Source: Nemertoderma westbladi (taxonomy: Eukaryota; Animalia; Xenacoelomorpha). Taken from it: 64,000 bases of DNA. Made by a program: the position numbers and the translations under genes. Positions 13,178 to 58,936 of this stretch are shown here, piece after piece. The stretch lies in contig JAUCBJ010001840.1 of the NCBI GenBank assembly GCA_032718475.1, positions 1 through 64,000 on the forward strand. The letters are read 5' to 3'. The notes below the pieces were generated by a model. That model saw nothing but the letters and a program-made list of their open reading frames with translations. It had not been told where the DNA came from and searched no databases. Each line of letters starts with the position of its first letter. Position 1 is the first letter of the stretch.

Positions 13178-14410
13178 TGTACGCGCTTTTGAAGACCTTT
13201 AGCAGTTTAACCTGCCAAAATTTATATGTCTTTTGGTTTATAAATAGACTTTAGAAGTTGACAAATATTTAATACCAATAAACACAACATTAGCAGAAGC
13301 CAGCCTAGTGCGCGTCCATTCACCCGCTGGATATACCCGGGAGACTGGATTCTGAGGGCTTAGATTATTATTGCAGTGTAAGCCTACTGTATTATTCGAT
13401 TGATCGTTAATAAATAATTTCTGACTAATATTATTCACTTTCGGGAAATATTAACAGTTCCTTTTGGACGTGGCGCTCTATCTAGGTAAACAGAGATATG
13501 ACTTATACTAATCACAACGGTAAGTCGGTAAGGCTTATGATTCACGTATGAGACGCATTCTTTAGGAAATGCTTAGTTATCAGTCACAATCAGGCACACT
13601 ACCGGTAACACACAATACTGCTCACTAATTTGCCGACCGTCAATGAATTTTATCATATATAAAGAGAGCAGCAACGGACTCATGTAGTGCTTATCAAATA
13701 GCATTAAATTCACTACAAACCACAACAATATAAGTCGCAATCGCTATATATAACCCGTCTCTCTAACCTGTAGTGTATCAAGAAAATTGGGAAATTTGGG
13801 TTCTTTATAAATGTTCTCCAAATAATAATATTCAACCAAAACACAACAGTAAATAGCATTAAGACGGTAGGTTAAGATGGTAACACTGTTTGACTGGACC
13901 GATAACAGTTATACGCTCTATAATCTTAAGCCTACTAATGTTTCTTCTAAAGTCTGAAACGAATTGACTCTAGAGCCGGTGTTCCTGGCCTAGATAGAAG
14001 GAACACAACAGTAACACAAAAACAGTAAGACTGAACACTCCTAGTATCATCGGCCGAATATCTCCACATCGACAGAAAAAATCGCTCTGATTGGCTTAAG
14101 CTAAACAAAGAACCATGTGTCCAATGGCCGTTTCCATGTCAGCAACCAGCTGTTAGATGTCGCAATCTGAATCATCAAGGCTAAGCTGTGTAAGGGTATT
14201 TGGTGCATTGCGGGTTTTTTGCCTTACCATGTCCTCCAAAGCACGTATATAGAAGAATGACTTTTATGTCCGTTAAAACACCTATAACGGTACCTTGCGG
14301 GCGAGAGGAACATATATATAGTTAGAGAGCCTTTTAGAGTATTCCAGCGCCTGGGGGGAAACTGGATTGCGAAGCAAAAGGGCCAGTTATATCCCACAGA
14401 AGCTTTTACA
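13178..14410 (-). repeat. BEL-1 3' LTR (1233 bp)
   Basis: Direct repeat of 24026-25243; plus strand TGTACGCG...CTTTTACA. Confidence 0.95.
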
Positions 14411-17569: not shown

Positions 17570-20500
17570 TTACGTTATGGAGTCCCTAGATATTTGTCGG
17601 ATTAGGGAAGTGGTCGTAGGAAGAGTATCTTGCCTTCCATAGTTTCCGGACAGTTTTCGGTCTCTTTCCAGTAAACATAAACGACCAGCTGGGCGATTGA
17701 GTTGTTGTGTTACTTTCTCCGCTCCCTTGGCCTGTCTAACCTCCGCCGTGGTAAGATGAGGAGGCCATTCTTCTTCTTCTTTACTTAAGAAGTCGGATCC
17801 ACCTAACCAGCCTGGAGTATCTATCAGTTCTTGAGGAGTTGCTCCTCTGGAAGCGATGTCGGCTGGATTAATCGTCCCAAGGCAATGTCTCCATTGATCT
17901 ACATTGGAGTTAATATCGTCATTATCTGAGGAGTATGGTGTTCCCTCAGCTAGTTCGTCCACCTCACTGCTCTCCATTTCCCATTCCTTTACTTGGTATA
18001 CCTGTTGTTGAGGTAATCTCTCTTTGAGAGTTCTACGGGAAGGGCCAGTGAAGTACCAACCTACTCTAGTTCTTACCGCATAGGTTTGTAGTGGCTGTGG
18101 TTGAGCAGGCCGTTTCTCCAATGTCTCGAGCGCCTCATGCGCGTTTTGGCCGATGAGTATTTGCACTCCAGGATAATCTGTCTGGAATCGAGGTATCTTA
18201 AGATGTTGGATGCTCTCATCCTCGTCCCAATTATAAAGGTCTGCTTGAGTAGTAGCGAAGTTCTTTATAGCCACCATTTTTACCGACCTTATACCTTGTG
18301 CTCCTAATTTATCCTGGGGGGTGGACAACACACCTACATAGTAATCTGCCGTTAGGGTAGATTTCCAAACCTGCATAATTCCTGACATATTCAATTTAGT
18401 CCGGAATTTGGGTTGTCCAGCAAAGATATCTTCGGCTAGTTCTTGATCGATGAATGTTCCTGTGCTGCCGGAGTCAAGGAGGGCGTTCACTATGTAACTT
18501 TTGTTAGGACCGTGAACTCTTACCTGCACTACAGGAAATTCTCTGATTCCTACGTTGGAAGTTGGAGCTTTCCAAGATGGTTGTCTGTCAAAGGTAGTTG
18601 GGGGGAACTCATTGTCGGTGTCCTTTTCATGCGTAAGTGCTCGATACACTGCGGTATTTATTAGGTAACAGGATTCGTTGGCGTCGGAGAATTCGTCCGT
18701 ATAGAATCCTTCCATCTCAGATTCTTGATCAGTGTCATTTACATCACTGAATTGGACATGTAGTTCGGGCTCACTTACCTGACTCGGGTTGTCTCGTTCG
18801 AACTCACTGTGTAACAAGATGTGATGTTTCGCGCCACACTTTGCACACTTTACGTCGGAGTAACAGGTTCGCCGTTGGTGTCCTGATCTGAGGCAATTAT
18901 AGCATAACCGCTTATTCCACAGGACTGTACGTCTGTCTACAAGGGATTTCTTTAGAAATTCAGCACACGCACTCAAACGGTGGGGCCCGTCGCACAGCGC
19001 ACATTTTGGTTTGATGTTACTCACCTTACCTTGGGTAACGTTATGCACTCTCGTTCTTTCTTCGGGCTTTCTTCCGTGAATTCTCTTAGGAGACGTAGGA
19101 GGAGTTGTTGTTACCTGTTCTCTCCTGTCACTGGTTCGAGACTTGTATTTACTTACGTCTTTATAGGTCTTGTTGTCATAGTAAGATTTTGCTGTGTCTT
19201 TCCCGCTGTCCTCTTCTTGAGAAGCTTGGCTTTCGCCGTCGTCAGTATAACACACTGGTATTATCCTTCTCCTAGAAACGGGTTTCTCACTTACCTTATT
19301 TTCCGATGTTTTCTCTCTGGACTGCTTTATGAGTTGTAATTTTACTTCACTATCTAAGAAGGACATGAGATCAGCCATGGTAGGGCTTCGTCGTTGCTGC
19401 TCATTCATATACAACACTTTCTTGTCCCAACGTGTACATACTCCACCCTTAGGTAAAGTAGAGACTACGGCTCCAATAACCATGGAACTCTGATATTCAT
19501 GAGACTTACCTAACCAGTCCAATTGTCTACAGATCTCCTGAATCTCATCGGAAAACTCTATAATCCCGCTACTAAGGAAGTTTCTGGGGGCTACTAATTT
19601 TGCATACAAATACTTAGCTATGTTATCCTTGTTACCATACCTGATGTTTAATGTATCCCAAACTTGTCTTAATCCCTCTGGATGTCCAATAAACTTTAAC
19701 GCCATTAACTTGGGAGGTCCTTCCAAGCACTTGATGAGGAACCTAAGTTTCTCTCCGTTAGATAGTACAGAGTTCTGTATGCTATCTTTGTAATATTCAT
19801 TGAAAGGTAACCATTTCATCTCATCTCCATTGAATTTGACGATCTCTCCCACTTTGACCGCTTGGCGGGCTTCTGTTCTAGCCATCTGACGCGTAAAGCT
19901 TTCTTGGGCCATCGTGTTATTTAATATCGAATTATCGGTATATAAATTTCTCGGATCATTATCAGGTCTATAGGGAATATCATTAACAACAGGTTTATAA
20001 TCACCCTTAATAGGGTTTGCTATAGGAGTTTCTACTTCACTAGCAGTATAGATGCGTGTAGGCTCCACACCTTGCGCATGTAATACTTCAGACCTAACAG
20101 GTTGACACAATGTTACAGGGGGTATTGGTATCGCTTTTTGTATATTGACTAATTTGTCGCGTTCTAGAGCGATACTTTGCTGCACTTCTTGCAATTCGGC
20201 CCTACCTTCCCTTACTGTTCCCTTAAGTTGGTGGACAGTCTCCTGCATCTGTCCGAGCAGGAGATTCATCCCCCGCCGTCCCTCCTCTACCCACTCGACC
20301 GCCGAAGCGGGAGTCGCCAACATTGTAGCGGGCTGACGCGGGACGACGGGAGACAAATCTTTGATTTCTCTCTCAGCTTCCAGGACAGGGATATTCTCAT
20401 GGACTGTTCTACCGGGTACAGGCAGTGTAGTACTGTGTAGAGGGAATTTAGAGTTAAGCTCTGGAAGTACAGGGGTCTCTAGCACAGGAGTGGCTTTGGG

Positions 20501-21763
20501 AACGACAGGCCTAATTATTTCAGGCTCATCAACTATGGTAGGGAGTCTTTTGACCTTAATAATTTGGTCTGTGGGTTCTGTACTACCTAAGTCTGTGCTA
20601 GCTAGTTGTCTTCTGACAGCTGGGGGCAAATCAGGCAGTTTATGACGGTGAGATGTTTTTCTACGCCTGCTTAGACGAGATCTATTTCCTCCGCCTTCCG
20701 GATCGGTGGTCTCGCCTTCTTCCGATGATGTGTATTCTTGGCGTTTGGGAGTAGATCGACTCATCATCTGCATTTGACTAGCAGTTAACTGTTTATTTAT
20801 GTTGTCTTGCGTCTCTTGCAGATTTTCCAACTCCAGTTGGGTAGTCAGCTCAGACGCTCTCCGTTCTGCTTCTGCCACTGCCTTTGCCGCCTTTCTTTCC
20901 GCTTCTGCTTCTGCCGCCGCTGCCTTTCTTTCTGCTTCTGCTTCTGCCGCCGCTGCCTTTCTTTCTGCTTCTGCTTCTGCCGCCGCTGCCTTTCTTTCTG
21001 CTTCTGCTTCTGCCGCCGCTGCCTTTCTTTCTACTTCTGCTTCTGCCATGGTCGCCGCCTTTTGTTCCTCTATCCGTCTTTTCTTTACTTCTTCTTCCTG
21101 GACTCTAGCGAGGCGAAGTTTTTCATCAAATTTAGCTTGGTTTGCAGCTAACATTTCCGCATCGATTGCGTCCAACACAAGCTTGGTTCCTTCACTATTA
21201 GGGCGAAGTCCAGACAGTCGTCTCCTCAACTCTTCGTCTCCTATGAATCGCTGATAGTCTGACAGATAGATGTCAATGGCGTCTCTAGTTCGCGGCTTCT
21301 CTGCTGCTGTTAATTCGCTTTCCACTTCGCTTTCCACCTCGCTTTCCACTTGAGAAGAAGTGGCATCAGTTGATTCTTCATAGGTTGGCCGCTCATCATA
21401 AACCGTATCCACCATCTTCGCTCCGCGTTCGGGCGTCCGCTCAACAGTATCTGAACTACTGGAGCTATCGGGCCGCTGAGAACTAGGTTCTTGGCTAGGA
21501 GGTTGCTGCTGTTTTATAGCTTCTTCTTGATCCCGCTTGACTTGGGCCCGAGTACCTATGGCAGACCAACGGCGCTTCACTAACTTCGCAAATTGCGAAA
21601 TCTTTTCTACCAACCTAGGTTCTGACACAACCACTGCAGGGGTTGCCCTTCTTACAGTATGAGGGGTTTCAGACCTCGGTCTGGGATTCTCTACACTTTG
21701 ATCTGAGAAACAGGCTGTTGTTTCTAGGAGACTATCTGACAGAGTTTGCCTGGTGTCAGCCAT
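17570..21763 (-). CDS. gag-pro: BEL-1 Gag-protease polyprotein with in-frame pol remnants (no RT, RNase H core or integrase core)
   Basis: KFNGDEMKWLPF capsid motif; knuckles CALCDGPHRLSAC, CYNCLRSGHQRRTC, CAKCGAKHHILLH; protease ALLDSGS; AVRTRVGW; tail QWRHCLGTINPADIASRG and RPAGRLCLLE. Confidence 0.92.
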   Translation of the reverse strand: MADTRQTLSDSLLETTACFSDQSVENPRPRSETPHTVRRATPAVVVSEPRLVEKISQFAKLVKRRWSAIGTRAQVKRDQEEAIKQQQPPSQEPSSQRPDSSSSSDTVERTPERGAKMVDTVYDERPTYEESTDATSSQVESEVESEVESELTAAEKPRTRDAIDIYLSDYQRFIGDEELRRRLSGLRPNSEGTKLVLDAIDAEMLAANQAKFDEKLRLARVQEEEVKKRRIEEQKAATMAEAEVERKAAAAEAEAERKAAAAEAEAERKAAAAEAEAERKAAAAEAEAERKAAKAVAEAERRASELTTQLELENLQETQDNINKQLTASQMQMMSRSTPKRQEYTSSEEGETTDPEGGGNRSRLSRRRKTSHRHKLPDLPPAVRRQLASTDLGSTEPTDQIIKVKRLPTIVDEPEIIRPVVPKATPVLETPVLPELNSKFPLHSTTLPVPGRTVHENIPVLEAEREIKDLSPVVPRQPATMLATPASAVEWVEEGRRGMNLLLGQMQETVHQLKGTVREGRAELQEVQQSIALERDKLVNIQKAIPIPPVTLCQPVRSEVLHAQGVEPTRIYTASEVETPIANPIKGDYKPVVNDIPYRPDNDPRNLYTDNSILNNTMAQESFTRQMARTEARQAVKVGEIVKFNGDEMKWLPFNEYYKDSIQNSVLSNGEKLRFLIKCLEGPPKLMALKFIGHPEGLRQVWDTLNIRYGNKDNIAKYLYAKLVAPRNFLSSGIIEFSDEIQEICRQLDWLGKSHEYQSSMVIGAVVSTLPKGGVCTRWDKKVLYMNEQQRRSPTMADLMSFLDSEVKLQLIKQSREKTSENKVSEKPVSRRRIIPVCYTDDGESQASQEEDSGKDTAKSYYDNKTYKDVSKYKSRTSDRREQVTTTPPTSPKRIHGRKPEERTRVHNVTQGKVSNIKPKCALCDGPHRLSACAEFLKKSLVDRRTVLWNKRLCYNCLRSGHQRRTCYSDVKCAKCGAKHHILLHSEFERDNPSQVSEPELHVQFSDVNDTDQESEMEGFYTDEFSDANESCYLINTAVYRALTHEKDTDNEFPPTTFDRQPSWKAPTSNVGIREFPVVQVRVHGPNKSYIVNALLDSGSTGTFIDQELAEDIFAGQPKFRTKLNMSGIMQVWKSTLTADYYVGVLSTPQDKLGAQGIRSVKMVAIKNFATTQADLYNWDEDESIQHLKIPRFQTDYPGVQILIGQNAHEALETLEKRPAQPQPLQTYAVRTRVGWYFTGPSRRTLKERLPQQQVYQVKEWEMESSEVDELAEGTPYSSDNDDINSNVDQWRHCLGTINPADIASRGATPQELIDTPGWLGGSDFLSKEEEEWPPHLTTAEVRQAKGAEKVTQQLNRPAGRLCLLERDRKLSGNYGRQDTLPTTTSLIRQISRDSIT
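20870..21047 (-). repeat. 33-bp coding tandem repeat (AEAERKAAAAE)~5 in Gag
   Basis: Visible in both DNA and translation. Confidence 0.9.
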
Positions 21764-23134
21764 GTTTGATTGTACAGTTGAATGCCTACTGCTATATTAC
21801 AGTTAAAGCAAGTCTAGTAATTCAGTATCACTGTTAGCCTAATAATTAATTACCGATACTGCTACTCAGTGTAGCGTGATATATATATAATATATTAGAA
21901 TACCGGTATGCTTATAGTATATATAAGTATTGTACAGACTAGTTTTGTCACAGAATACAGGTATATAATTTTGGCACAAATATATATAAATATATAATAG
22001 GCCTATCGTGAATACCGGTATGCAGCTTACACTTATAGTATATAAGTATAATTCTGGACTAGAATTAATTACAGAATACCGGTATGATTTCAGCTCAAAT
22101 TTATAGAAATAAATATAATAAGCCTATGATAAATACCGGTATGTCAATTATTTTAGAATAATTGAATTTCTGAATATTTTAGGGTTACTTGGTTACTTTA
22201 ACTTACTTTGTTACCGTTATTTAAGCAGCAGTCCAACTGATATTTAGACCTAGTTGTTGTATGGCAGGCCTACTATTTATAAATCGTTTGAGTTGATTTA
22301 TAATAGATATATACCCGTTTAAAAAGGGGTTTTGTCAATATTTGAAATAAATGTTATTATTTCTGGGGAAGTCACTACACAGAAGCTGTGCGCTCTCAGT
22401 GAAGTGCTACCTATGGGACACTAAAACAGATAATTCTAATTTACCTAAGTTACTTAATACTACAATTACTTACGATATGGGTGAGATTAAATCTCTAATT
22501 AAACACAACAAAAATATTACGTACGAAATTTTAGGGTAATTTTACAGGAAGTCTACAAACCAGCCTAACAAAGGGTTAGAATTCTGGTTATTACAACGAA
22601 CAGGGTACTACGGTATTTGAAAATAATAAGTAGTAGTAAATACACTGCGTTGTCCAGATAGGAAAATACCACCGCCTGACGACCTATAACCGTATCGCTA
22701 TAGGTACTACGTTATGTATCACGGAGTGTTCCTACCTAGAAGTTAATTACCGCGGACTACCAGATCCAGCGTGCCTATTAACCACTTTACAACACAAATA
22801 TACTGCCTACGCACTAATTACCTCGGAAAGCACTGTACACTAAACCCTAAATTAGGTACAAGTACTGGTACAACAAATAATCAGTAGTTAAATATACTTG
22901 AACAGTTAAAAGAACCACGGCATCTGCTGGAGTGACCGAAGCACAAAGTCACCAGTCTTTTCCTACGCCAAGCAGCCCGTGTAGTACCGGGGTTAATTTA
23001 ACTATAACGGTATGTGTAACAAGCTCAATTACTGTAGGAATAAACTTGGGGACATGAATGTTGCGAATAATCGCATAAACTCTGAATAATAAATATTACG
23101 CTACCCGTACAGAATACTCAAACAAAAATACAAA

Positions 23135-24014: not shown

Positions 24015-24025
24015 ATAACTGTTAT
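24015..24025 (-). promoter_or_regulatory. Candidate self-priming PBS of BEL-1 (sense ATAACAGTTAT)
   Basis: Directly follows the 5' LTR; no TGG; exact complement within LTR at 24734-24744 (and 13902-13912). Confidence 0.7.
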
Positions 24026-25243
24026 TGTACGCGCTTTTGAAGACCTTTAGCAGTTTAACCTGCCAAAATTTATATGTCTTTTGGTTTATAAATAGACTTT
24101 AGAAGTTGACAAATATTTAATACCAATAAACACAACATTAGCAGAAGCCAGCCTAGTGCGCGTCCATTCACCCGCTGGATATACCCGGGAGACTGGATTC
24201 TGAGGGCTTAGATTATTATTGCAGTGTAAGCTTACTGTATTATTCGATTGATCGTTAATAAATAATTTCTGACTAATATTATTCACTTTCGGGAAATATT
24301 AACAGTTCCTTTAGGACGTGGCGCTCTATCTAGGTAAACAGAGATATGACTTATACTAATCACAACGGTAAGTCGGTAAGGCTTATGATTCACGTATGAG
24401 GCGCATTCTTTAGGAAATGCTTAGTTATCAGTCACAATCAGGCACACTACCGGTAACACACAATACTGCTCACTAATTTGCCGACCGTCAATGAATTTTA
24501 TCATATATAAAGAGAACAGCAACGGACTCATGTAGTGCTTATCAAATAGCATTAAACTCACTACAAACCACGATAATATAAGTCGCAATCGCTATATATA
24601 ACCCGTCTCTCTAACCTGTAGTGTATCAAGAAAATTGGGAAATTTGGGTTCTTTATATATGTTCTCCAAATAATATTCAACCAAAACACAACAGTAAACA
24701 TTAAGACGGTATGTTAAGTTATGATATGAACTGATAACAGTTATACGCTCTATAATCTTAAGCCTACTAATGTTTCTTCTAAAGTCTGAAACGAATTGAC
24801 TCTAGAGCCGGTGTTCCTGGCCTAGATAGAAACAACACAACAGTATCACAAAAAACAGTAAGACTGAACACTCCTAGTATGATCGGCCGAATATCTCCAC
24901 ATCGACAGAAAAAATCGCTCTGATTGGCTTAAGCTAAACAAAGAACCATGCGTCCAATGGCTGTTTCCATGCCAGCAACCAGCTGCTAGATGTCGTAATC
25001 TGAATCATCAAGGCCAAGCCGTGTAAAGGTATTTGGTGCATTGCGGGTTTTTTGCCTTACCATGTCCGCCAAAGCACGTATATAGAAGAATGACTTTTAT
25101 GTCCGTTAAAACACCTATAACGGTACCTTGCGGGCGAGGGGAATATATATACAGTTAGAGAGCCTTTTAGAGTATTCCAGCGCCTGGGGGGAAACTGGAT
25201 TGCGAAGCAAAGGGGCCAGTTATATCCCACAGAAGCTTTTACA
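24026..25243 (-). repeat. BEL-1 5' LTR (1218 bp)
   Basis: Direct repeat of 13178-14410 with scattered SNPs and one diverged block (~24695-24732). Confidence 0.95.
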
Positions 25244-34052: not shown

Positions 34053-35219
34053 TGTAAAAGCTTTTGCGTAATTAGCCGGTTATTTTCCCGTAAAGTACTC
34101 TGTAGTTGGTTTACCAGGCATAAAAAGGCCGTGTTCTTACTGTACTGGTGTTTTAGAGGACATAAAAGTCATTTCTTCTGTATGTGTACTTTAAAGGACA
34201 TAATCCGTAATTTCGTGACGCAATAGCTGGATACTCTTGAAAACAGTGGCGCTACCATGACGACGGCTAGCAGCTGATATTGCCACGTCGACAGTTCTTT
34301 GTTTCTTTGTTCTCTCGTTGTTCGGTTGACCAATCAGAGCGTTTGTTGTCTCTGTGTTGGAGGTGTATACAGAGGCTCAGTAGTTCAGTGTTATGTTTTG
34401 CCCAGAGCCTAAGAACCGGCTTTTGGCACCTCCGTGTTTTCAGTTTTTATCTTACACTAGTAGGCTTAATTATAAGGACATATATCCGTTATCTCAACAT
34501 AACATAACATACCATACCTAATCAAACAACCTGTGCATACTTTTATATTGTTATACTGCTATTTACTGTCAGTTCTTCATAATATGGTTGATGAATTATT
34601 ATATTTGGAATAACGATAAATAACCCCGAAAACCCAATATTCTTGATATACCGAAGGTAAGAGAGAAAGGTTACATATAACGATTGTGACTTATGTTAAA
34701 GTGGTTTGAAGTGAATCTAATGTTATTTGATAGACCCTACATGATTCGGTCTGTGTTCCTTTTATATGTGACTAAAATCAGTGAAGATCGGCAGATTAGT
34801 GTGCAGTATTGTGCAGCATTGTGTATTAGTGAGACTGATAACGAAGCATTTCCTAAAGAATGCGCCATATATGTGAATTATAACTAAGCCATATCGTTGT
34901 GAGTAGTTTAAGTCATAACTCTGTTTATATAGGTAGAGCGCCACGTCCTAAAGGAACTGTTAATATTTCCCGAAGATGAATAATATTGTCAGAAATTATA
35001 TAATACTGTCAGTCGAATAATACATTAGGCCTACATAGCAATACGATTAAGCCGTCGAACCCAATCTCCCGGGTATATCCAGCGGGTGAATGATCGCGCA
35101 CAGATTGGTTTCGACTAGTGTAGTGAATCAAATACTTGTCATAGGCTAAAAGCGAATTATTATCTAGAAGACATCCTAATTTGGCGGGTTAAACTGCCAA
35201 AGGTCTGAAAGCGCGAACA
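34053..35219 (+). mobile_element. Solo LTR of a BEL-1-related subfamily
   Basis: TGTAAAAGCTT...GCGCGAACA; ATTAT TSD (34048-34052, 35220-35224); blocks match the reverse complement of the BEL-1 LTR (e.g. TAGAGCGCCACGTCCTAAAGGAACTGTTAATATTTCCCGAA; TCTCCCGGGTATATCCAGCGGGTGAATG). Confidence 0.9.
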
Positions 35220-38325: not shown

Positions 38326-38660
38326 GATAGGGGTCTGTTTGTGTGCAGATGTTCGGTAGGTCATTCGATTCTACTAAGAATAACAATGTTGCTAGAATAC
38401 TGTCAACGCTGTCAACGTCTTTAGTTTTTGACACTGCATGCCCAACTTTCACTGATTGAGTTCTATCTGATAGATAGCTACGTATCATTTCCCATAGTTT
38501 TCCCCGAATTGCTAATTTTCATAATTTTAGTAGCACCGAACTATGAGATATAGAATCAAAAGCCTTTTGAAAGTCTAGATAAATTATTTCTACTGTTGAA
38601 TCACATTATTTTCTATAGCGTGATATATTTTATCTAAAACCACAAGCAGTTGAAGAACGG
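38326..38660 (-). pseudogene. CR1-type RT fragment
   Basis: Minus strand IYLDFQKAFDSISH...IRSYLSDRTQSVKVG...LFLV..NDLP. Confidence 0.75.
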
Positions 38661-44240: not shown

Positions 44241-44310
44241 CTTATCAATCTCAGTTTTTAAAGTTGTATAGCTGGCTCCTTGAGCGTAGCCAGTCGCCTA
44301 CATAGGTAGT
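44240..44310 (-). pseudogene. Unique LINE ORF2 C-terminal stub continuing from the satellite
   Basis: Minus strand reads SLP...then (with a shift) TFK.TEIDK directly after the last satellite monomer. Confidence 0.5.
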
Positions 44311-46825: not shown

Positions 46826-47427
46826 TATCACGTTGGCTAAAAGAATCCTTTGTGAAGATTCTATAGCCGGGAAGGAAATAAGGAGGGCCGGTTGCGGTAC
46901 TCCAAGTATTTCTTCCCCTGGGCCACGTGTAAGCCTTGACTGGGCTGATAATTCTAGAGCTACTTTTATAAGGATGTCCAAACCTCCCAAACAGACTCCA
47001 GGCTCTCCCTGCACCTTAATATAAATACCCAAACTGCCAAACCCAATAGAGTTACCTGATTGCCAAAGTTACCTTGCTCGCTTGACCGCGAGTGAAGCCC
47101 CTCCCCACGGCGGAATAGAGTGACGGAAATATAAGTTGTAACCAACGATATAATAGAGAACGGACGACGGACCCGGTGACCTGGTGGATTGTTCTAGGCG
47201 CTGGTGAGTAATGTTGTTTGTTATTGTAGGATTGGGAACAAATCCCATAAGAACTTTATGAATTCTCCCAGTCAGTAGTTAGCAGTACTGCAGTATGCCT
47301 ACATCGGTAGGCTACTCTCTGTGTTGCAGGAGTAGTGCAGTCGTGTCCTGTCACTTCTGCTGTCTGCTATCTGATGGATACCGGAAGTGTCATTTTGTCA
47401 TTTCACAGGCCACCAGGTGACGTCATA
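46826..47427 (-). repeat. BEL-2 3' LTR (TA..TA termini)
   Basis: Plus strand TATCACG...CGTCATA; direct repeat of 58335-58936. Confidence 0.95.
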
Positions 47428-47435
47428 CCGCTCCC
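47428..47435 (-). promoter_or_regulatory. Polypurine tract GGGAGCGG of BEL-2
   Basis: Abuts the 3' LTR; identical to the BEL-1 PPT. Confidence 0.8.
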
Positions 47436-48855
47436 TAAAAAATTTATTTATAAATTATTTATAAACAAAAAGGAAACTGGTGGTACAATATGGTGTATAT
47501 ATTTTGAGTTGGAACTCAAATTAATTAACTATCAATAAGGGAATATAAACTAAGAAAGGCATTTAATTTACTTATTGCACCGTTATTACAACAACAACAA
47601 AAATTTCTAAAAATTTACGATTGAGTATGATTAACTCGAAATGAAATACTTAGTACTTGCTGGCTCCCATTTAGGCAAGGTTTCTCTAGGTAATGTTTGC
47701 TGAATATGCTGATCCAGTAAACACTATTGCACTATATGTATAACTTAATATATATTCTTAGAATAATAACATGATTAATATAATGGACTTTCTGAATAAA
47801 ACTATATTACCGGCAAGTAAAGTTATCATATCAAAGAAATTATCAACAAACCAAGTATTAACAATATAAACATTTCAACGCCAAATTAATCAAACTTCTG
47901 AAATTCTAATAGACTCCGTTTTCGGGGACTGACTCCTGAAGGTCATTCACCCGGTGTTTTTCCCGTCTGCAGGCAATTTCCAAGGAAAGGTTGAGATAAT
48001 TATTTGGTTCACCAGTAAGATAGATAACGAGTCACCCATCACGTCACGCAGATCCGATCCGTCTAGGTATATATAGGTCTAGCATCGGTCCAACGAAACA
48101 TCTTTGTCCCAGGACGTCTGTGGTTCCGTAGCCTAGGTAAATAGCCGTTGCCGTGGGGGGGGGGGGGGGGGGGGGGGGTCAAATGGAGTATTCCAAAGTT
48201 GGCGATAAGGCAATTAGTCCCTCACCCACCGTTCGATTCCCCCCAATAATAATAAACCCATAGAGATAGCCTGGGTTTTTCTATATTATTATTATGTTAT
48301 ATAGTATCACACTGTTTCATAATCAAAATCAATCCAATCAGGCGATTACCTCTTAAAATGTAAAAGTAATCAAATTGGTGATAACTTAAATTCACCAAAC
48401 TGAAACCAAGAGGAAGAATAACTTCAGAGATTAATTATTTTTTAATTAATCAAACAGTTTTAGTTATAATAAATGTTATTTTTATTTTTTAAACACTCCG
48501 ACCCTCCTTCGGTCTAAAATGTATTTTATTAAGTCATTAAATTTTTCTCGAATTACTTTTGAAGGTTGATCATTAATTAAAAATTTTATCGTTAACTATA
48601 AATTCAACAAATCTCAATAAATTTAAATAAATTTAAATTTATTACCGGAATTATGTTTATATGTCTCTATGGATGTCATATTTTGTTCTAATTCATGCGC
48701 TAGTTTCTTAGATCAGATAAATATGAACATCATACGATCTATTCATACTAAACATACAACGCATTATAATACACACATTCTTTGCTATATTAAATCGGTT
48801 ATCTGTATACAGTTTCAGTTAATAAGTAGAATCATTAAAGTTATTAACACGGCAT

Positions 48856-50586
48856 TTACGGTTTATGTTTGTCAACAGATTTCCGTTGGGTATTTGTTGT
48901 AATATTACTAAGGATCCACGGCTGATTATGTTGAAGAGGCTGAAATTGACCATATATACCTGTCTTCTCTGAGTCTTGTTCAAGGAGGCATAATTTCTGT
49001 ATCAGTCTTTCGAGAATACTCCCATTCTGCGTCTTCAATTTAGCGCTTCTGACTAAGCCATCGCCACTGTAGTTAGGTTCTAAGACAGTAGCTGTAAGCC
49101 AATCCCGCCGTGGCCGTACAGGGTCATGAATTAAGACGATATCACCAATATTTAGATTTGGTCGTTGGCAAAACCACTTCGATCTTAGGCGTTGAGAAGG
49201 TAAATAGTCAATCAACCAATTGTTCCAGAATCGTTGAGTCAGGAGTTGAAGAACTTTCCAGGTGCGTCGGGAATGAAGATCATTATCCTCCATTTCGGAT
49301 ATTGGTATCGTAATGGCTGGTTTAGAGAAGAGGAAATGTGCTGGAGTGAGAGCTTCAGCTGATTCAGAAGATTGCGAAATACGTGTTAATGGTCGGTTGT
49401 TCAAAACTAATTCGATCTGAGCCAACAATGTGCGCAACGCCTCATCATCCAAATACGTGTAAGTCTCATCCTCGGGCAACAGTTTGTAGAAAGCTTGTTT
49501 GACACTTTGTACCAGCCTTTCATAAGTTCCCCCATACCAAGGAGCGTGGGGTGGAGTAAAGTACCAGTCTATGAGGTTTATTTGATGATTATCAAGAAGC
49601 TCGTGTAGCGATTGCGTATTCCACTCATTGATATTATTACGAAGCTCTTTCTCGGCTGCTACGAAGTTTCCTCCATTATCAGAGGTGATATGATGTGGTT
49701 GTCCGCGCCGTGCGATCAATCTGGACAATGCGGACAAAAACGAACCCATGTTAGCTTGATACAAAACGTCCAGATGGATCGCCCTTGTAGTCATACATAC
49801 CGCCAATAAGCCCCATCGTTTGACAGTAGTTCTGGCGCGCTTAACTAATATCGGGCCAAACATATCCACTCCACAATTGGTAAATGCTGGCTCATATGCC
49901 GCCATCCGAACGTTGGGTAGATCTCCCATCTGTTGCTTCATCAGTGGTGAGTTGTATCTCCGGCAGTGAAGACAATTGCGCATAACATTCCGTAGATACT
50001 TCCAGGGTGAAACTAGAAAATAGTGTTGTCTCAAATGACTCAAGATATGGTCTCTTCCTGAGTGATTAAGTTCAAGGTGAGTGTCATGAAATAATTGTTC
50101 CAAGAGGAGTGGTTCGCGCAACATGATAGGATGTATAGTGTCATAGGACACTGGAGCCATTGTTAGGCGTGTTTGAACTCGAATAATCCCATTTGACATG
50201 ATTGTGGCAACATGCTGAGGGGGGATAGGGTTATTATGTTGATGTTTCAAAAAAAGTTCTGGATCTGCTATTCTTTGTGAGAGGCGAAGTCTCATTTGTA
50301 AACTGGTCCTTAGTTCTTCTAGTGTTAATGGACCAAAAAATCTAAGAGGTTTCTCGGTCGTATTGGGATTCTTTTGTCGCCAACAATACCAATGTGCCAT
50401 GCGGCGAATGTAGCAAATATCCCGAATCGAGGCACGAAGACTTTGCTGACTGCTCAGAAGTCTTTTCAACCAAGGATGCAATCCTTTGTCTAAGTTTGGA
50501 AATTTAATCTCTTTACTTGAACCTCTGGGAATTGGGGTAGGATCATCTTCAACATTTATTATTGTATTGGTTTCTCCTGAAATCAA
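48856..50586 (-). CDS. pol: BEL-2 integrase region (separated from upstream ORF by a 1-nt shift)
   Basis: HHCC (H..H...CLHC), GVDMFGP, SDNGGNF, GGTYERLVQSVK, C-terminal IQKLCLLE. Confidence 0.92.
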   Translation of the reverse strand: MISGETNTIINVEDDPTPIPRGSSKEIKFPNLDKGLHPWLKRLLSSQQSLRASIRDICYIRRMAHWYCWRQKNPNTTEKPLRFFGPLTLEELRTSLQMRLRLSQRIADPELFLKHQHNNPIPPQHVATIMSNGIIRVQTRLTMAPVSYDTIHPIMLREPLLLEQLFHDTHLELNHSGRDHILSHLRQHYFLVSPWKYLRNVMRNCLHCRRYNSPLMKQQMGDLPNVRMAAYEPAFTNCGVDMFGPILVKRARTTVKRWGLLAVCMTTRAIHLDVLYQANMGSFLSALSRLIARRGQPHHITSDNGGNFVAAEKELRNNINEWNTQSLHELLDNHQINLIDWYFTPPHAPWYGGTYERLVQSVKQAFYKLLPEDETYTYLDDEALRTLLAQIELVLNNRPLTRISQSSESAEALTPAHFLFSKPAITIPISEMEDNDLHSRRTWKVLQLLTQRFWNNWLIDYLPSQRLRSKWFCQRPNLNIGDIVLIHDPVRPRRDWLTATVLEPNYSGDGLVRSAKLKTQNGSILERLIQKLCLLEQDSEKTGIYGQFQPLQHNQPWILSNITTNTQRKSVDKHKP

Positions 50587-50587
50587 C

Positions 50588-53500
50588 CTAGATTTGGGGG
50601 GGGTATACTCTATTGAGAACTATCTCCGCTCCCTTGGGGAGATTTAGATCTCGCAGTACATGAGGCCACTCATCTTCTGTCTCCCACAAGAAATCTGGAC
50701 CTTTCCACCATATGGAAGAATTGACTAATTCTTCTGCTGTTGAGCCACAACAGGCCAGATCAGCTGGATTAATGGTACCAGCTATATGACGCCATTGATA
50801 TAGGAGTGATTGTTTTAATATTCGAGTCACCCGGTTTGTTATAAACACAGAGAGTTTATGTTTACGGTTATGCAGGTATTGTAATACTATGGTAGCATCA
50901 GTCCAATAATATTGTTCTACCTTAAGAGTAAGTTCAGCTGTGATGATCTCAGCAAGTTCAGTTCCCAGCACAGCAGCTTGTAATTCTGCCTTAGGGGTTG
51001 ATAGTTCTTGTTTAGGCATAATACGAGATTTTGAAGCAACAAAGGTTACTGAAAATATACCCTTCAACTCTCGTCTAAAATAGGCCGTTGCACCCATCCC
51101 ATTATCACAAGCGTCAACAAAGACATGAAGTTGAAGTTGTTCGGTTGTTTGCAAGTGAGGAAAGTATGTTCTGGGAATAGTTAATTGTTCTATATTTTTA
51201 AGGTCCTTTTCCCACTTACTCCAGGCCTCAAACAGAAGTTGGGGAATAGTATCATCCCAATCTAAATCTAAAAGCCAAGTTTTCTTAAGCAAGAACTTAG
51301 CCCTCATAATTACTGGCGCAACATATCCAAATGGGTCGAAGACCTTGTGCATTTTCGAAAGGCATTGGCGTCGTGTTTTTGCTGGCACATTATCGATAAA
51401 GGCAACTGTGAAGTAGAACTCATCTTCTTGCATTCGCCAACGTAGTCCCAATGTTTTCATTACTGGGAGCTGCTCTACATCTAAGTCTAGGGTAGGGGAG
51501 GCCCGTTCTTCTGGTGGAAATGTCTGTAGTAGTTCCTTGCTGTTGCTAGCGAATTTCACCAGTCGAAAGCCACCCCGGAGCAGGCAATCTTGAACACCAT
51601 GAGCAATATCAATTAAGTTTCCACTGATTGGATGTGACTTAAGAACATCATCCATATATAAACTATTCTTTATTGTTTCAATTATAACCTTTTTGAAATC
51701 ATTGGCATTGTCATCAGCTGTTGCATACACAATACTCTCAGCATTGCTAGGTGAGGATATTACTCCAAAGGGTTGGCACTTCATCCAATATTGGCTTGGC
51801 TCACCTTCGAGCTCAGTTGTCGGCCACCAATAATATCGGAGGCTGTCTTGGTCCACTGGGAGGGCACGTACCTGTAGAAACATTGCTTCTATATCTGCTA
51901 CGAAAGCTACATTAAACTCACGAAATCTAATAAGAATTCCTACCAAAGATTGTAATAAGTTTGGTCCAGGAAGTATCTCTGTATTGAGTGATTTACCTTT
52001 ATATGTGGCATGACAGTCGAAAACAACTCGTACAGTGTTGGGTTTGTTTTCATGGGTTACAAAATGATGCGGCATAAAATATGACCTGGGACCAAATTGT
52101 TGTTGGTCAGATGGAACCAATTCTGCGCAATCAATTTTGAGGTATTTATCCATTTGATGTTGATACATATCTAAATATTTAGGGTTCTTCTTCAGCCTTT
52201 TTCTCATGTTCAGAGCTCTATTATATGCTAGGCTAGAATTGTTAATAAGCTGTGGAGGATCATCCCGCCACAGCAGGCCAGTCTGATAATGTCCATCAGG
52301 CAGAAGTTTGCGCGTCCGATGCTGGATCTCCACAGCATGGAGGTCGTCTGGAGACATTGCTAATTTATCCTCATTCACGTTAGTGCTGTCATTCTCAAGC
52401 CATCGTTGCATGGCCAAATCAAGAGTCATATTATCCAAGGCTGAACATTCTTCATTATTATGATAATCGTCGTTGGTTCTAGATGATTCACTATGAGTCA
52501 CCAAGTGCATTAAGGTATCGTAAGTATCCTGAGTGGGCAGTTCAGTCATGTCTCTACCTAAGGCTGCCAATTCCTGTTCTATGAATGTATCTTGTAGTCG
52601 ACATACTGATTCATGAGTGAGTATTTCAATGTAATTTATACTCTCAGATTCTCTCTCTTTTAATGTTCTCTCTGATGGTCCCGAACAATACCATCCAAGA
52701 GGTGTTCGTGCCGCAAATGGCGAACTGTATTTGGATGACCCCACTCCCAAGAAAGCTGCCGGGATTGTTTCTAAAACGCGAAAGGCTTCAGGGCAGTTCT
52801 GCCCTATGAGCATGACAACCTTAGGATCTTCAGCCGTTGCTAGAGGAATCTGGTATTGTTTGGAAAAATCATCACTCAACCAGTCATGGGGAGTCCCAAG
52901 TGCGTTTTTTAAACCATTCATACGTATAATTTTGATGTTCTCTGCCATTTCCCCTTCCACGTCATCCCTGGCTGGACTAAGTTTACCCTTTGCCACTACC
53001 GTAGGCATCTCTTGGTACCAGGCTACGGCCGTTAAGTGCAGGTTAGTTTCTTTGGTTACTCCAAACAACCGGTCGAAAATATCCCCATCTAGAAAGGTAG
53101 TCGAGCTACCCGTATCTACAAGAGCATTAACAATTGTTGAACCCTTATCGCCATTTAGTCTCAAGGTCAAAACCGGAAATTCACGCACTGGACCACCTCT
53201 ACGATTGAGTCTACAGGAAATTATGGCAGCATTATCGATAAAATTTGACTCATGTTCTGCAAACTCAGTAACTCCATATTCATCACCAGCAGCATCTGAA
53301 TCTGTCTCAGATTCTACTATTCTCATTGCAGCCTCTTCTCGTTTAGTTTCACGTGAGGTAAGTTCTTCTTTATGAAGGATAGTGTGGTGGGCTTCACCAC
53401 AAATTTTACAACGATTTTTATTCTTACAATGGGACCGGAGGTGGAGGCTTGATAAACAGTTGTAGCAAAGTTTTTCACGTTGACAAAAGGATCTTCTTTT

Positions 53501-56260
53501 CTCTAGATTCATCTTATTAAAGTCTTCACATTTAAACAAGTTATGGGTATCTCCACATTTAATACATTTCAACTCACCTGTCCCTCTGGATACAGTTGGT
53601 TTGGGTGGGATATTTTGTTTAGAAGGTCGAGTGATAGCATTAAGAGCCTTGGATTGTTGATGTCTTCCTTTTGCTGGCTTATGCAATTTCGCCACTATCC
53701 GATTTAAGAACTCATCATCATCACTTGAGTCATCTGTTCTTACTGCATTTACCCTCGAAATTCTTTTAATATCTTTATTAAGAATTGTGGTATTATTGGG
53801 CTTTGCAACAGGCATTAAAACCAGAATATCCACCTCTTCTTCCAAAAACTGGACAAAATGTTCGGCTTTGGCAATATTAGGATCATTCAATCGACGCTGG
53901 TGACGTAATTGTGCCTTTACCCATCGTCGACGAGTGGGTTCTGTTAACTTAGCTGCGAGATCGTTCAATATCTTAGTGTTATCTAGCTGAGGTCCAGCCC
54001 CGAGTTGATGCAGCTGTTGGAAAGTCCATTTTACCTCATCTGCGAATTCAATTACCTTTTCAGGTTGGCTTACAGGTTCCATTTTCAAAAGTTTCTCCAA
54101 TAATGATGCAATTATGGATTGCTCTCGACCATAACGTTTGTTCAAACCTTCCCAGGCCTTTATGAATCCATCCTGAAGACCAACACAACTTTCTACCATC
54201 CTTAAAGGTGCATCTTCCACCATAGCCATCAAATAGTTCAAGTTTTCTTGATCCGTCAAGTGGAATCCCAAAACTGCTGTCTCAAAGTGATGTCTGAAGG
54301 TTACCCAATCATCTGCAGCACCAGAAAATTTCTTTAACTTTATTTTTGGAAGATTTCTCTCAGCCGTAAGTCTATTCATAGCATGTGCTATGGTTGGTTC
54401 CATTGATGAAGTATTAATTCTACTGGACTGAAGCATCCCTATGTCCCTCGATACCAAAGGAGGTGGACACCCTTCACCCAGTGGAGCAGAAGTTGAATTT
54501 GATCTATCAATATTATCCTGGTATGTATTATTTACTAGTTGAATTCTAGAAAGGTTATTGTGAGTTTGACCTCCTGGAGCATTCATACTACCATTGGAAG
54601 TTAGAGTTTCATGAGGGGGCAGTTGGGCCGTATCTGCATTGAGCGCAACTTCTGCTTGGATCCTATCCACATGATCAAAGCAACTCTTCCGAAGGTCCTT
54701 TAACCGTATGTCCATGTTCTTGGCTAGCTGACTTATGTGCTGTCCCCAGTGCCCATGGGGTGGTTGTAAACCCTGTATTTCATTAATCTTCTGGGATAAA
54801 CCCTGCAGACTCTGCTCCATTTCATATCTCCAATTCGAATATTGGTCTATTGGTGACCATCCCATTTTATTATCGTATATAGCATGTGTGTGTTTAGGAA
54901 TGGTTCCGCCTATACTTGTAGAGTATTGCATGGATATTGGAGGTGGTACAGGTATTGATTGTATCCTTGGATGTAAGATAACCTTTGGTTCTCTCGAGGT
55001 TTGATACCTCGGTGAAGATAATTGTGGTCTATTTCCACTTCCAGGATTCTTCTGGAAATAGTGGGAGGATGGTGCCATCTCAGTGTCCTGCCGCTCATAT
55101 CTAATCTCTGAGGTTACATGTCTTGGCTCAATTCTACCAGGTTTAGGAGTTCCTTTTGCCTCTTTCAAAGCCTCTGATTCTAGGAGAATTCTATGTTTTT
55201 CCGGTGGAATTTCGTAAGCTCGCCTCTTGTTAGATACTGGTGGGCAAAACTCAACATGACGTGACAAGTCGGGTTGGGTGGTTACAACGTTGACCTTCAT
55301 TCCCTTTCTATCTTCTAGGTTTTTGTCTATGAAGTGATCCTCTTGATTTTCTTCCATAACCAACCGATTCAAATCAGGTACCAGGGGTTGCTGTAAATAT
55401 CGCTGCAAAGTCTCGGAACTGGGATTAATTGGAGATGAGCTGATAGGTCCTCTTGCAGCTGGTAGCAAAGACTGCCCTTCTTGTCCAATTGAAACAAAAG
55501 GGGCATCATCCAGAATGGTGTCATTTACTTCCTGCAGCTGGGACTGTAGACGGATAAATTTCTGTTGTTGATCTAGGGCATCATTCTGCAATTGAAACTC
55601 CATATCTTTCAGTTTCTTCTGTTCCGCTAACTCCTCAAATATATTATCTTGATGATGTTGTTCCGCAGCAACTCTTTCTTCAACCTCTCGTTTCTTAGAT
55701 TGGGCTATCCTTTCTTCCACAGCTTGTTGGTTGGCTCTCTTCTGGGAGCTCAGTATTATGTTATCTCTCAGTTGTTGTGCTTTTGTTTGCTTTCGTTGAG
55801 TGATCAATTCTTCCTGTTGTTGATATTCCTTAAGGCGACGATCCCTATGTTTCTTTGCTATTTCAAAGCGTTGCATCCGGTCCTCCCTTTTTGAAGAGGC
55901 AACACTGCTTTCACTTAATGTGCAGGTCGGGGATGAAAATAGAGGCATCATTACTCCTGCTGCTCCACACCATTTTTGGTATAGACTAGATATTTTTTGG
56001 TATCTGCCATCGTGCTCACGTGCGCGCATCTGTAATCTATGATCAAGAGTGTCCAATTGTCGGGCCTTGGCAACGAGACGTATCCACTCCAAATGAGACA
56101 TAAGGCGTTGTCGTTTTGCTTCTAATTCAACATTCCATGTGTATACTTCGTCTGGACGGTGAGCCTGGAAATACTCGTGGGTGAGTTTTGCTTCCAATCG
56201 TTTAGATACCGTGTCGACGCTGATAAATATCCGGAGCTTATGTGGTCTAAACGTCCACAA
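50588..56260 (-). CDS. gag-pol: BEL-2 Gag-protease-RT-RNase H polyprotein
   Basis: KFSGAADDWVTF; three knuckles; ALVDTGS; ADIEAMFLQV; YMDD; HVFVDAC; PKAELQAA; WTDATIVL; NPADL. Confidence 0.95.
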   Translation of the reverse strand: MWTFRPHKLRIFISVDTVSKRLEAKLTHEYFQAHRPDEVYTWNVELEAKRQRLMSHLEWIRLVAKARQLDTLDHRLQMRAREHDGRYQKISSLYQKWCGAAGVMMPLFSSPTCTLSESSVASSKREDRMQRFEIAKKHRDRRLKEYQQQEELITQRKQTKAQQLRDNIILSSQKRANQQAVEERIAQSKKREVEERVAAEQHHQDNIFEELAEQKKLKDMEFQLQNDALDQQQKFIRLQSQLQEVNDTILDDAPFVSIGQEGQSLLPAARGPISSSPINPSSETLQRYLQQPLVPDLNRLVMEENQEDHFIDKNLEDRKGMKVNVVTTQPDLSRHVEFCPPVSNKRRAYEIPPEKHRILLESEALKEAKGTPKPGRIEPRHVTSEIRYERQDTEMAPSSHYFQKNPGSGNRPQLSSPRYQTSREPKVILHPRIQSIPVPPPISMQYSTSIGGTIPKHTHAIYDNKMGWSPIDQYSNWRYEMEQSLQGLSQKINEIQGLQPPHGHWGQHISQLAKNMDIRLKDLRKSCFDHVDRIQAEVALNADTAQLPPHETLTSNGSMNAPGGQTHNNLSRIQLVNNTYQDNIDRSNSTSAPLGEGCPPPLVSRDIGMLQSSRINTSSMEPTIAHAMNRLTAERNLPKIKLKKFSGAADDWVTFRHHFETAVLGFHLTDQENLNYLMAMVEDAPLRMVESCVGLQDGFIKAWEGLNKRYGREQSIIASLLEKLLKMEPVSQPEKVIEFADEVKWTFQQLHQLGAGPQLDNTKILNDLAAKLTEPTRRRWVKAQLRHQRRLNDPNIAKAEHFVQFLEEEVDILVLMPVAKPNNTTILNKDIKRISRVNAVRTDDSSDDDEFLNRIVAKLHKPAKGRHQQSKALNAITRPSKQNIPPKPTVSRGTGELKCIKCGDTHNLFKCEDFNKMNLEKRRSFCQREKLCYNCLSSLHLRSHCKNKNRCKICGEAHHTILHKEELTSRETKREEAAMRIVESETDSDAAGDEYGVTEFAEHESNFIDNAAIISCRLNRRGGPVREFPVLTLRLNGDKGSTIVNALVDTGSSTTFLDGDIFDRLFGVTKETNLHLTAVAWYQEMPTVVAKGKLSPARDDVEGEMAENIKIIRMNGLKNALGTPHDWLSDDFSKQYQIPLATAEDPKVVMLIGQNCPEAFRVLETIPAAFLGVGSSKYSSPFAARTPLGWYCSGPSERTLKERESESINYIEILTHESVCRLQDTFIEQELAALGRDMTELPTQDTYDTLMHLVTHSESSRTNDDYHNNEECSALDNMTLDLAMQRWLENDSTNVNEDKLAMSPDDLHAVEIQHRTRKLLPDGHYQTGLLWRDDPPQLINNSSLAYNRALNMRKRLKKNPKYLDMYQHQMDKYLKIDCAELVPSDQQQFGPRSYFMPHHFVTHENKPNTVRVVFDCHATYKGKSLNTEILPGPNLLQSLVGILIRFREFNVAFVADIEAMFLQVRALPVDQDSLRYYWWPTTELEGEPSQYWMKCQPFGVISSPSNAESIVYATADDNANDFKKVIIETIKNSLYMDDVLKSHPISGNLIDIAHGVQDCLLRGGFRLVKFASNSKELLQTFPPEERASPTLDLDVEQLPVMKTLGLRWRMQEDEFYFTVAFIDNVPAKTRRQCLSKMHKVFDPFGYVAPVIMRAKFLLKKTWLLDLDWDDTIPQLLFEAWSKWEKDLKNIEQLTIPRTYFPHLQTTEQLQLHVFVDACDNGMGATAYFRRELKGIFSVTFVASKSRIMPKQELSTPKAELQAAVLGTELAEIITAELTLKVEQYYWTDATIVLQYLHNRKHKLSVFITNRVTRILKQSLLYQWRHIAGTINPADLACCGSTAEELVNSSIWWKGPDFLWETEDEWPHVLRDLNLPKGAEIVLNRVYPPQI

Positions 56261-56487
56261 GAGACAGTGGGGTCAATACCCTCCAATTTCAACTGCATAC
56301 AAGCTGATAAGTAGGAGTCTGTGGCTCTCTCACTAAGAGGTCTCGTTGTTACAGCTAATAGCTGGTGTTCTTCTGATTTGGTTTCATCACTTTCTTGCTG
56401 TGGGGGAACTACTGTTAAGTCAGAAGCTGATGGCGAATTAGTCGGATTTTCCCCATCTGTGGTATACTGTCCATTATCATTAGACAT
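56122..56487 (-). CDS. Probable true Gag N-terminus of BEL-2 (frameshifted) or overlapping upstream ORF
   Basis: ATG-initiated 121 aa at the end of the AT-rich leader; overlaps the long ORF, which lies in the -1 frame and lacks an early ATG. Confidence 0.55.
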   Translation of the reverse strand: MSNDNGQYTTDGENPTNSPSASDLTVVPPQQESDETKSEEHQLLAVTTRPLSERATDSYLSACMQLKLEGIDPTVSCGRLDHISSGYLSASTRYLNDWKQNSPTSISRLTVQTKYTHGMLN

Positions 56488-58323: not shown

Positions 58324-58334
58324 AAAGTTCTTAT
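58324..58334 (-). promoter_or_regulatory. Candidate self-priming PBS of BEL-2 (sense ATAAGAACTTT)
   Basis: Directly follows the 5' LTR; no TGG; exact complement within LTR at 58756-58766. Confidence 0.72.
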
Positions 58335-58936
58335 TATCACGTTGGCTAAAAGAATCCTTTGTGAAGATTCTATAGCCGGGAAGGAAATAAGGAGGGCCGG
58401 TTGCGGTACTCCAAGTATTTCTTACCCTGGGCCACGTGTAAGCCTTGACTGGGCTGATAATTCTAGAGCTCCTTTTATAAGGATGTCCAAACCTCCCAAA
58501 CAGACTCCAGGCTCTCCCTGCACCTTAATATAAATACCCAAACTGCCAAACCCAATAGAGTTACCTGATTGCCAAAGTTACCTTGCTCGCTTGACCGCGA
58601 GTGAAGCCCCTCCCCACGGCGGAATAGAGTGACGGAAATATAAGTTGTAACCCACGATATAATAGAGAACGGACGACGGACCCGGTGACCTGGTGGATTG
58701 TTCTAGGCGCTGGTGAGTAATGTTGTTTGTTATTGTAGGATTGGGAACAAATCCCATAAGAACTTTATGAATTCTCCCAGTCAGTAGTTAGCAGTACTGC
58801 AGTATGCCTACATCGGTAGGCTACTCTCTGTGTTGCAGGAGTAGTGCAGTCGTGTCCTGTCACTTCTGCTGTCTGCTATCTGATGGATACCGGAAGTGTC
58901 ATTTTGTCATTTTACAGGCCACCAGGTGACGTCATA
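58335..58936 (-). repeat. BEL-2 5' LTR
   Basis: Direct repeat of 46826-47427. Confidence 0.95.

Follow-up and report, generated by a model that had tools for sequence, protein, structure and literature searches.

Two BEL/Pao retrotransposons in the window

The window, meaning the whole 64,000-nucleotide stretch that was analysed, carries two LTR retrotransposons on its minus strand that are referred to as BEL-1 and BEL-2. Self-comparison of the window located the LTRs of BEL-2, and Pfam domains identified the coding frames between them. The features of the element are as follows.

58335..58936, minus strand, BEL-2 5′ LTR (602 bp, termini TAT...ATA)
56122-56487, minus strand, separate 121-codon ATG frame overlapping the start of the gag-PR-RT-RNase H frame
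50588..56272, minus strand, BEL-2 gag-PR-RT-RNase H frame (1894 codons stop to stop; DUF1759, Peptidase_A17)
48856..50619, minus strand, BEL-2 integrase frame (Integrase_H2C2, DUF5641), in a frame other than that of RNase H
47428..47436, minus strand, BEL-2 polypurine tract, adjoining the 3′ LTR
46826..47427, minus strand, BEL-2 3′ LTR (602 bp)

The two LTRs have four internal differences over 602 bp, and BEL-2 is surrounded by a 5-bp target duplication (CCCTG) that lies within a 73-bp satellite. The last 8 nt of the polypurine tract are identical in BEL-2 and BEL-1. The CCCTG duplication, the polypurine tract common to BEL-1 and the near-identity of the LTRs fix the BEL-2 ends as TAT...ATA.

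The presence of DUF1759, Peptidase_A17, Integrase_H2C2 and DUF5641 on minus-strand frames between the LTRs identifies BEL-2 as a BEL/Pao element. These BEL-specific domains occur in the order PR-RT-RNase H-IN between two flanking LTRs, with a polypurine tract before the 3′ LTR and a target-site duplication, and the homologs listed (best 120 of 250) carry PF05380. BEL-2 shares its LTRs, DUF1759 gag, PR-RT-RNase H-IN order, Peptidase_A17, DUF5641, polypurine tract and 5-bp duplication with canonical BEL/Pao elements (Semotivirus). The RT DD pair and the four RNase H acidic residues are present. The best matches among those listed are 36-41% identical and come mostly from aquatic animals; over RT-RNase H the closest listed proteins have 36-40% identity, and the hosts named for them are corals, barnacles, molluscs, echinoderms and fish. 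Pfam shows BEL domains in BEL-2 without a chromodomain, which places the element outside the phylogenetic Tf1/sushi group.

The site adjoining the BEL-2 5′ LTR is complementary to the LTR itself

The ICTV description of the Belpaoviridae gives them host tRNA as the primer and an 18-nt binding site that complements the 3′ end of tRNA-Arg or tRNA-Gly (PMC8742986). A tRNA-type site is absent from both elements in the window: the first TGG is at +64 from the 5′ LTR end in BEL-2, and none occurs in the first 200 nt past the 5′ LTR of BEL-1. The two differ from canonical BEL/Pao elements in this respect, as BEL-2 does in its TAT...ATA termini. The primer-binding site of the ICTV description is a descriptive trait, and the BEL/Pao membership of BEL-2 rests on its proteins. 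An Rfam search over 56200-59000 returned only three sub-threshold miRNA matches, which fall on an AT repeat. Two segments of BEL-2 concern the primer.

58324..58334, minus strand, BEL-2 primer-binding position (0 nt after the 5′ LTR, without TGG; exact complement of the LTR 11-mer)
58756..58766, minus strand, BEL-2 LTR 11-mer, candidate self-primer (LTR nt 171-181)

Read from 58334 to 58324, this sequence matches LTR nt 171-181 (58766-58756) as an exact reverse complement, and exactness ends at 11 nt. The 11-mer is kept in both LTRs, with the second copy at 47247-47257, and its 3′ end would face the first base beyond the LTR. The lack of a TGG site and the 11-nt match had both been described in an earlier sequence-only reading of this DNA, and both were confirmed. 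That reading put the probability of a chance match at about 1.4e-4, which comes close to the Markov expectation of 2.2e-4 at offset 0 (1.3e-3 for offsets 0-5). A match of at least 11 nt appeared in 4 of 2000 dinucleotide shuffles when offsets 0-5 and spliced matches were allowed. The self-complementarity of BEL-2 is real and beyond chance for a single look. An exact LTR complement of about 11 nt at a site that abuts the 5′ LTR and has no TGG is the sequence arrangement of the Tf1 type.

BEL-1 has the same arrangement with different letters

BEL-1 lies in the same window and has canonical termini.

24026..25243, minus strand, BEL-1 5′ LTR (1218 bp, TG...CA, ~96% identical to the 3′ LTR)
24015..24025, minus strand, BEL-1 primer-binding position (0 nt after the LTR, exact complement of its own LTR 11-mer)
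24734..24744, minus strand, BEL-1 LTR 11-mer, candidate self-primer (LTR nt 500-510; unchanged in both LTRs)
17570..21796, minus strand, BEL-1 coding frame (gag-PR and an RNase H end fragment; RT region unmatched)
13178..14410, minus strand, BEL-1 3′ LTR
34053..35219, plus strand, solo LTR from a family related to BEL-1, with a 5-bp target duplication

BEL-1 is predicted to be a non-autonomous element and has no visible target duplication. Its self-complement was equalled in 26 of 2000 shuffles. Between the primer-binding sites of BEL-1 and BEL-2, 4 of the 11 letters are different, and in each element the site pairs with its own LTR. The LTRs of the two elements have no BLAST similarity, so the comparison is one of positional equivalence and not of covariation in an alignment. 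The solo LTR has an aligned 11-mer (34482-34492) with two changes relative to that of BEL-1 and has no adjoining partner site.

Three further features of the BEL-1 family were observed. A substitution cluster with a 10-nt indel between the BEL-1 LTRs starts directly after the candidate primer (~24700-24733), the 11-mer itself being unchanged, and this cluster could mark a strand-transfer boundary. BEL-1 (~24930-24860) shares with the solo LTR a CCAAT-containing 12-mer that is followed ~60 nt on by TCAGT; this conserved block lies ~120 nt upstream of the 11-mer and is a possible TATA-less promoter. A repeat of ~960 bp that contains 163-bp units lies at 12216-13177 and 31640-32607 (97% identity) and adjoins the end of the BEL-1 3′ LTR.

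These data bear on the possibility that the BEL-2 LTR end is misplaced, or that the real primer site has been deleted from this copy, and that the match has no function. The non-canonical termini of BEL-2 and the frame changes in its coding region speak for such an error. The target duplication, common polypurine tract and near-identical LTRs that fix the ends speak against it, as do the TATA 3′ ends that also occur in the relatives L011, L034 and apparently L026/L028. BEL-1, with canonical TG...CA ends, shows the same feature, and we regard a misplaced end or a deleted site as scarcely credible.

Self-pairing in relatives is confined to families without a TGG site

Relatives of BEL-2 were collected from metagenomes (best 80 of 538 confirmed loci), and the LTR junctions of 20 loci were inspected. 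They gave thirteen relative families, with near-identical loci merged, and in each family a second copy fixes the LTR end. L049 was left out because its contig begins inside the LTR, and the LTR end of L028 was placed by hand, with an uncertainty of about 1 nt or more since the copies diverge there. A scan of viral contigs gave 38 pattern matches and no relatives.

A self-complement of 10-15 nt at offsets 0-4 was found in 9 of the 10 families that have no TGG site (0-27 of 2000 shuffles as good in each family). The tenth, L067, has a 9-nt self-complement (27/2000). None of the three TGG families has a self-complement of at least 10 nt; their matches are only 4-5 nt long and were equalled in 1138-1919 of 2000 shuffles. 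The cross-family matrix gave the same picture, with matches of at least 10 nt in 11 of 15 cognate leader/LTR pairs versus 2 of 210 non-cognate pairs. In all 11 positive families the distance between the LTR end and the end of the paired segment is 0-4 nt.

The pairing is contiguous in only one of the nine self-pairing relatives (11 nt, 20/2000). In the other eight it runs across a predicted LTR intron and exists only if a 71-186-nt GT-AG intron inside the LTR is removed; only 4-9 nt of pairing precede this intron. The intron search asked only for a GT[AG] donor and a [CT]AG acceptor, yet the donor is GTAAG in seven of the eight families, and most acceptors follow a pyrimidine-rich stretch. Six further loci with inferred LTR ends have spliced matches of 10-13 nt (0, 0, 1, 4, 5 and 10 of 100 null runs as good), a post hoc set that is weaker than the 13 families. 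A spliced primer was rejected for the elements of the window. Their best spliced matches are poor (4 nt in BEL-2 and 9 nt in BEL-1, 77/1000), so both are taken as contiguous. The distance from the pairing segment to the LTR end is 421 nt in BEL-2 and 708 nt in BEL-1 versus 66-216 nt in the relatives. Since most relatives are spliced, their support goes more directly to the general mechanism than to its contiguous form.

Two other observations were made on the surveyed loci. The TGG-type locus L036 has a self-complement of only 4-6 nt and an apparent donor and acceptor inside its LTR (L036:6700-7270); LTR introns may extend beyond the self-pairing families. The contig of L040 and L041 contains the same element in exact repeats ~6.1 kb apart, which is either a tandem array or the assembly of a circle.

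An explanation in which the primer of BEL-2 is half of a host tRNA or some other small RNA, with the LTR complement a coincidence or the relic of an inverted duplication, has to be weighed against this survey. Priming by half-tRNAs without a TGG is known in Copia lineages (PMC6317226), and both 11-mers in the window are AT-rich. A single common tRNA primer predicts similar sites, but the sites differ between families. BEL-2 (4/2000), BEL-1 (26/2000) and nine of the ten relatives each pair, by different letters, with the LTR of their own family and rarely with that of another (2/210). The window contains no tRNA genes. We consider priming by a host RNA very improbable.

The alternative that the pairing is selected but serves a structural or regulatory purpose, such as 5′-3′ circularisation with the 3′-LTR copy, dimerisation, or a translation/packaging switch, while a tRNA fragment, a protein or something else is the primer, gains from the BEL-1 site. 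This site is close to a palindrome, and its local fold is a hairpin that resembles the hairpin site described for fungal GalEa Copia elements (PMC5445492). The absence of Tf1-type flanking helices and the promoter-like motifs downstream of the BEL-2 11-mer, which could place the 11-mer in U3, point in the same direction (see below). The BEL-2 site is not palindromic, however, and the paired segment ends in all 11 positive families where the 3′ end of a primer must sit. Self-pairing is also found only where the TGG site is absent, and a purely structural helix would not require such a register. A structural or regulatory role with a different primer is in our judgement quite unlikely.

Taken with the different letters by which BEL-2, BEL-1 and most testable relatives pair with themselves, these results make it likely that this branch self-primes with a piece of its own RNA.

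The self-pairing families fall on one side of the RT-RNase H tree

A tree of 25 RT-RNase H rows was calculated under LG+G4 with no mixture model; BEL-1 was left out because it has no RT. The tree separates BEL-2, 14 self-pairing rows and L067 from four TGG rows and five unlabelled rows, and the branch between the two sides has support of 100/98. Placement of BEL-2 on the tRNA side was not rejected by the AU test (p 0.21), and a quick mixture tree of 61 rows shows it as a long branch without a resolved place. The trees are compatible with a single origin of the self-pairing side.

The RNA start and the fold of the leader

The sequence-only reading had predicted a BEL-2 transcription start within ~2 nt of 58766, which would make the 11-mer the first 11 nt of the RNA as it is in Tf1. 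Motifs in the BEL-2 LTR lie on both sides of the 11-mer. The upstream ones are a CRE (nt 3) and an ETS motif (41), and those downstream are a GC box (323), a CCAAT box as ATTGG (381) and a possible TATA box as TATAAAAG (458).

58472..58479, minus strand, TATAAAAG in the BEL-2 5′ LTR (LTR nt 458, downstream of the 11-mer)

The earlier caveat that TATAAAAG at 58479-58472 would put the start downstream of the 11-mer stands. The BEL-2 LTR contains neither AATAAA nor ATTAAA, which leaves two readings of the TATAAA, as a TATA box or as a variant poly(A) signal. If transcription began at the downstream motifs, the 11-mer would remain in the 3′ LTR alone. The TTCAT before the 11-mer, which had been read as initiator-like, is present and gives no indication of a start-site role.

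Motifs in the relatives suggest starts that lie ~100 nt upstream of their pairing segments. Seven of the eight spliced families have an A[AT]TAAA 3′ of the segment, which places the segment in R. Four of the eight have a TATA box 5′ of the segment, and the start it implies is 102, 104 and 136 nt upstream in three of them and at the segment in one.

Folding was calculated for BEL-2 RNAs with different 5′ ends. The 11-bp helix is weak (-9.7 kcal/mol). An RNA that starts exactly at the 11-mer forms it with a probability of ≤0.01, and forcing the helix costs 4.3 kcal/mol. The pairing probability is 0.5-0.8 for starts 7-8 nt upstream, through a bulged extension of the helix, ≤0.12 for starts at -30 and -60, and 0.5-0.76 at -120. 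Because the helix probability swings with the assumed 5′ end, folding counts as weak evidence. The extension used by the 7-8-nt starts is the following segment.

58767..58774, minus strand, possible 5′ helix extension of BEL-2 (one bulged nt, then six Watson-Crick pairs and a G-U)

The extension was equalled in 19 of 1000 shuffles, a value for one of 11 families tested and uncorrected. A bulged U with a 5′ extension was dropped as a general feature, with 564 of 1000 shuffles as good for BEL-1 and 53-803 of 1000 for the other nine families. Tf1-type flanking duplexes were not found in BEL-2, where 71 and 197 of 200 shuffles were as good as the two candidates, and across the 11 families there were none on the 5′ side and three weak ones on the 3′ side (5-11 of 200).

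The exact start-site prediction is left unsupported by the TATA positions of the relatives, the downstream motifs of BEL-2, the folding and the missing flanking duplexes, as well as by the 4-9 nt that precede the predicted intron in eight relatives. A Tf1-like start exactly at the 11-mer is unlikely in our estimate, and use of the 3′-LTR copy of the 11-mer as the primer is less likely still. A start somewhat upstream, which would give the primer a longer 5′ tail, seems likelier than either and is a plausible though tentative reading. Tf2 has alternative starts and shows that a productive upstream start is compatible with a second one downstream (PMC5341516). By analogy, a downstream start in BEL-2 would not on its own overturn self-priming.

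A model for self-priming and its relation to known systems

We propose that BEL-2 minus-strand synthesis is probably primed by a segment encoded in its own LTR, in some form of self-priming, and not by a host tRNA. The core of the proposal made in the sequence-only reading, that this BEL family is independent of tRNA and primes itself, gains support from BEL-1 with 11 nt of other letters and from the contrast between 9 of 10 non-TGG and 0 of 3 TGG relatives; the exact Tf1 start that came with it does not.

A BEL-2 transcript that starts at or upstream of LTR nt 171 would fold and thereby bring the 11-mer into pairing with the site just past the LTR. A nuclease, probably the RNase H of BEL-2 itself, would cut 3′ of the 11-mer, and RT would extend the resulting 3′-OH through the 421 nt of LTR downstream. 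The strong-stop DNA would then transfer to the 3′ LTR. Cleavage and priming in BEL-2 are proposed by analogy. The model predicts that the RNA joined to BEL-2 strong-stop DNA ends at LTR nt 181.

A broader version of the model is an evenly balanced proposal. It holds that a BEL/Pao branch of aquatic animals swapped tRNA priming for a self-primer, which in most families is joined by the host spliceosome across an LTR intron. Only the spliced 5′ copy could then pair with the primer site, and the unspliced 3′ copy would hand the intron on. The origin would be separate from that of Tf1/sushi, the primer internal and not 5′-terminal, and the contiguous elements BEL-1, BEL-2 and L011 would have lost the intron or predate it.

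In Tf1 the primer is the RNA's first 11 bases, and RNase H cuts between bases 11 and 12 (PMC7175516, PMC4600332). Tf1 and Tf2 (Schizosaccharomyces pombe), Tj1 and the Tf1/sushi Ty3/gypsy chromoviruses have the arrangement seen in BEL-2, with no tRNA site and an 11-nt LTR segment that exactly complements the site past the 5′ LTR. BEL-2 belongs to another superfamily, however, and a primer at the RNA 5′ end, as in Tf1, is unlikely for its spliced relatives. A pairing segment that spans a predicted intron, as in most BEL relatives, was not found described for Tf1/sushi elements in the literature searched. Tf1 RNA is described as forming a three-duplex 'pretzel' (bioRxiv 2022.12.06.519325), whereas its flanking duplexes were not found in BEL-2. 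The tie to Tf1 would be at the level of the central duplex, in an element that is itself BEL/Pao by its domains and lacks the pretzel.

Self-priming has been predicted for plant TAR Ty1/copia elements (Houba, Osr-1) and Tcn1 from an LTR complement of at least 10 nt that starts 0-5 nt after the LTR (PMC6317226). BEL-1 and BEL-2 both have such a complement, and in both cases, as in those plant Copia and Gypsy elements, self-priming is a prediction only. Fungal GalEa Copia elements have a conserved palindromic hairpin in place of the PBS, with a role left open, and the authors of that report found no LTR complement in them (PMC5445492). BEL-1 resembles GalEa in having no tRNA site and a palindromic sequence directly past the LTR. 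Unlike GalEa, BEL-1 and BEL-2 have an exact LTR complement, and the BEL-2 site is not palindromic.

Term searches for PBS, tRNA and priming had no match in four BEL surveys (PMC554778, PMC3118150, PMC6238403, PMC2774666), and the available portions of PMC8220671, PMC3601003, PMC5443660 and PMC12451622 are silent on BEL self-priming. No report of self-priming in BEL/Pao was found in the literature searched, which excluded Repbase, GyDB, subscription journals and supplements. Probable self-priming in a superfamily held to be tRNA-primed is a reading that is well supported by sequence comparison.

BEL/Pao replication has been described as poorly understood (PMC8742986). A self-priming BEL branch, if true, would bring a third LTR superfamily, and invertebrate hosts with it, under the Tf1 mechanism and would account for the 'no PBS' annotations of BEL elements. 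The spliced form in the relatives, if true, would couple the initiation of reverse transcription to host splicing. Self-primed elements would evade host control that acts through tRNA supply or through tRNA fragments at the primer site.

Other elements in the window

The region 44214-64000 has a nested structure. A third, decayed BEL element (40376-44164) is split by an array of the 73-bp satellite, and this array in turn carries the BEL-2 insertion with its 5-bp duplication. The 5′ junction of the third BEL fragment is missing from the window. At 35540-38326, large inverted repeats that contain 22-bp units surround a helix-turn-helix frame (36866-37540), and this segment is probably a foldback or DNA transposon. 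A separate reverse transcriptase frame (RVT_1) at 28317-30434 probably belongs to a non-LTR element.
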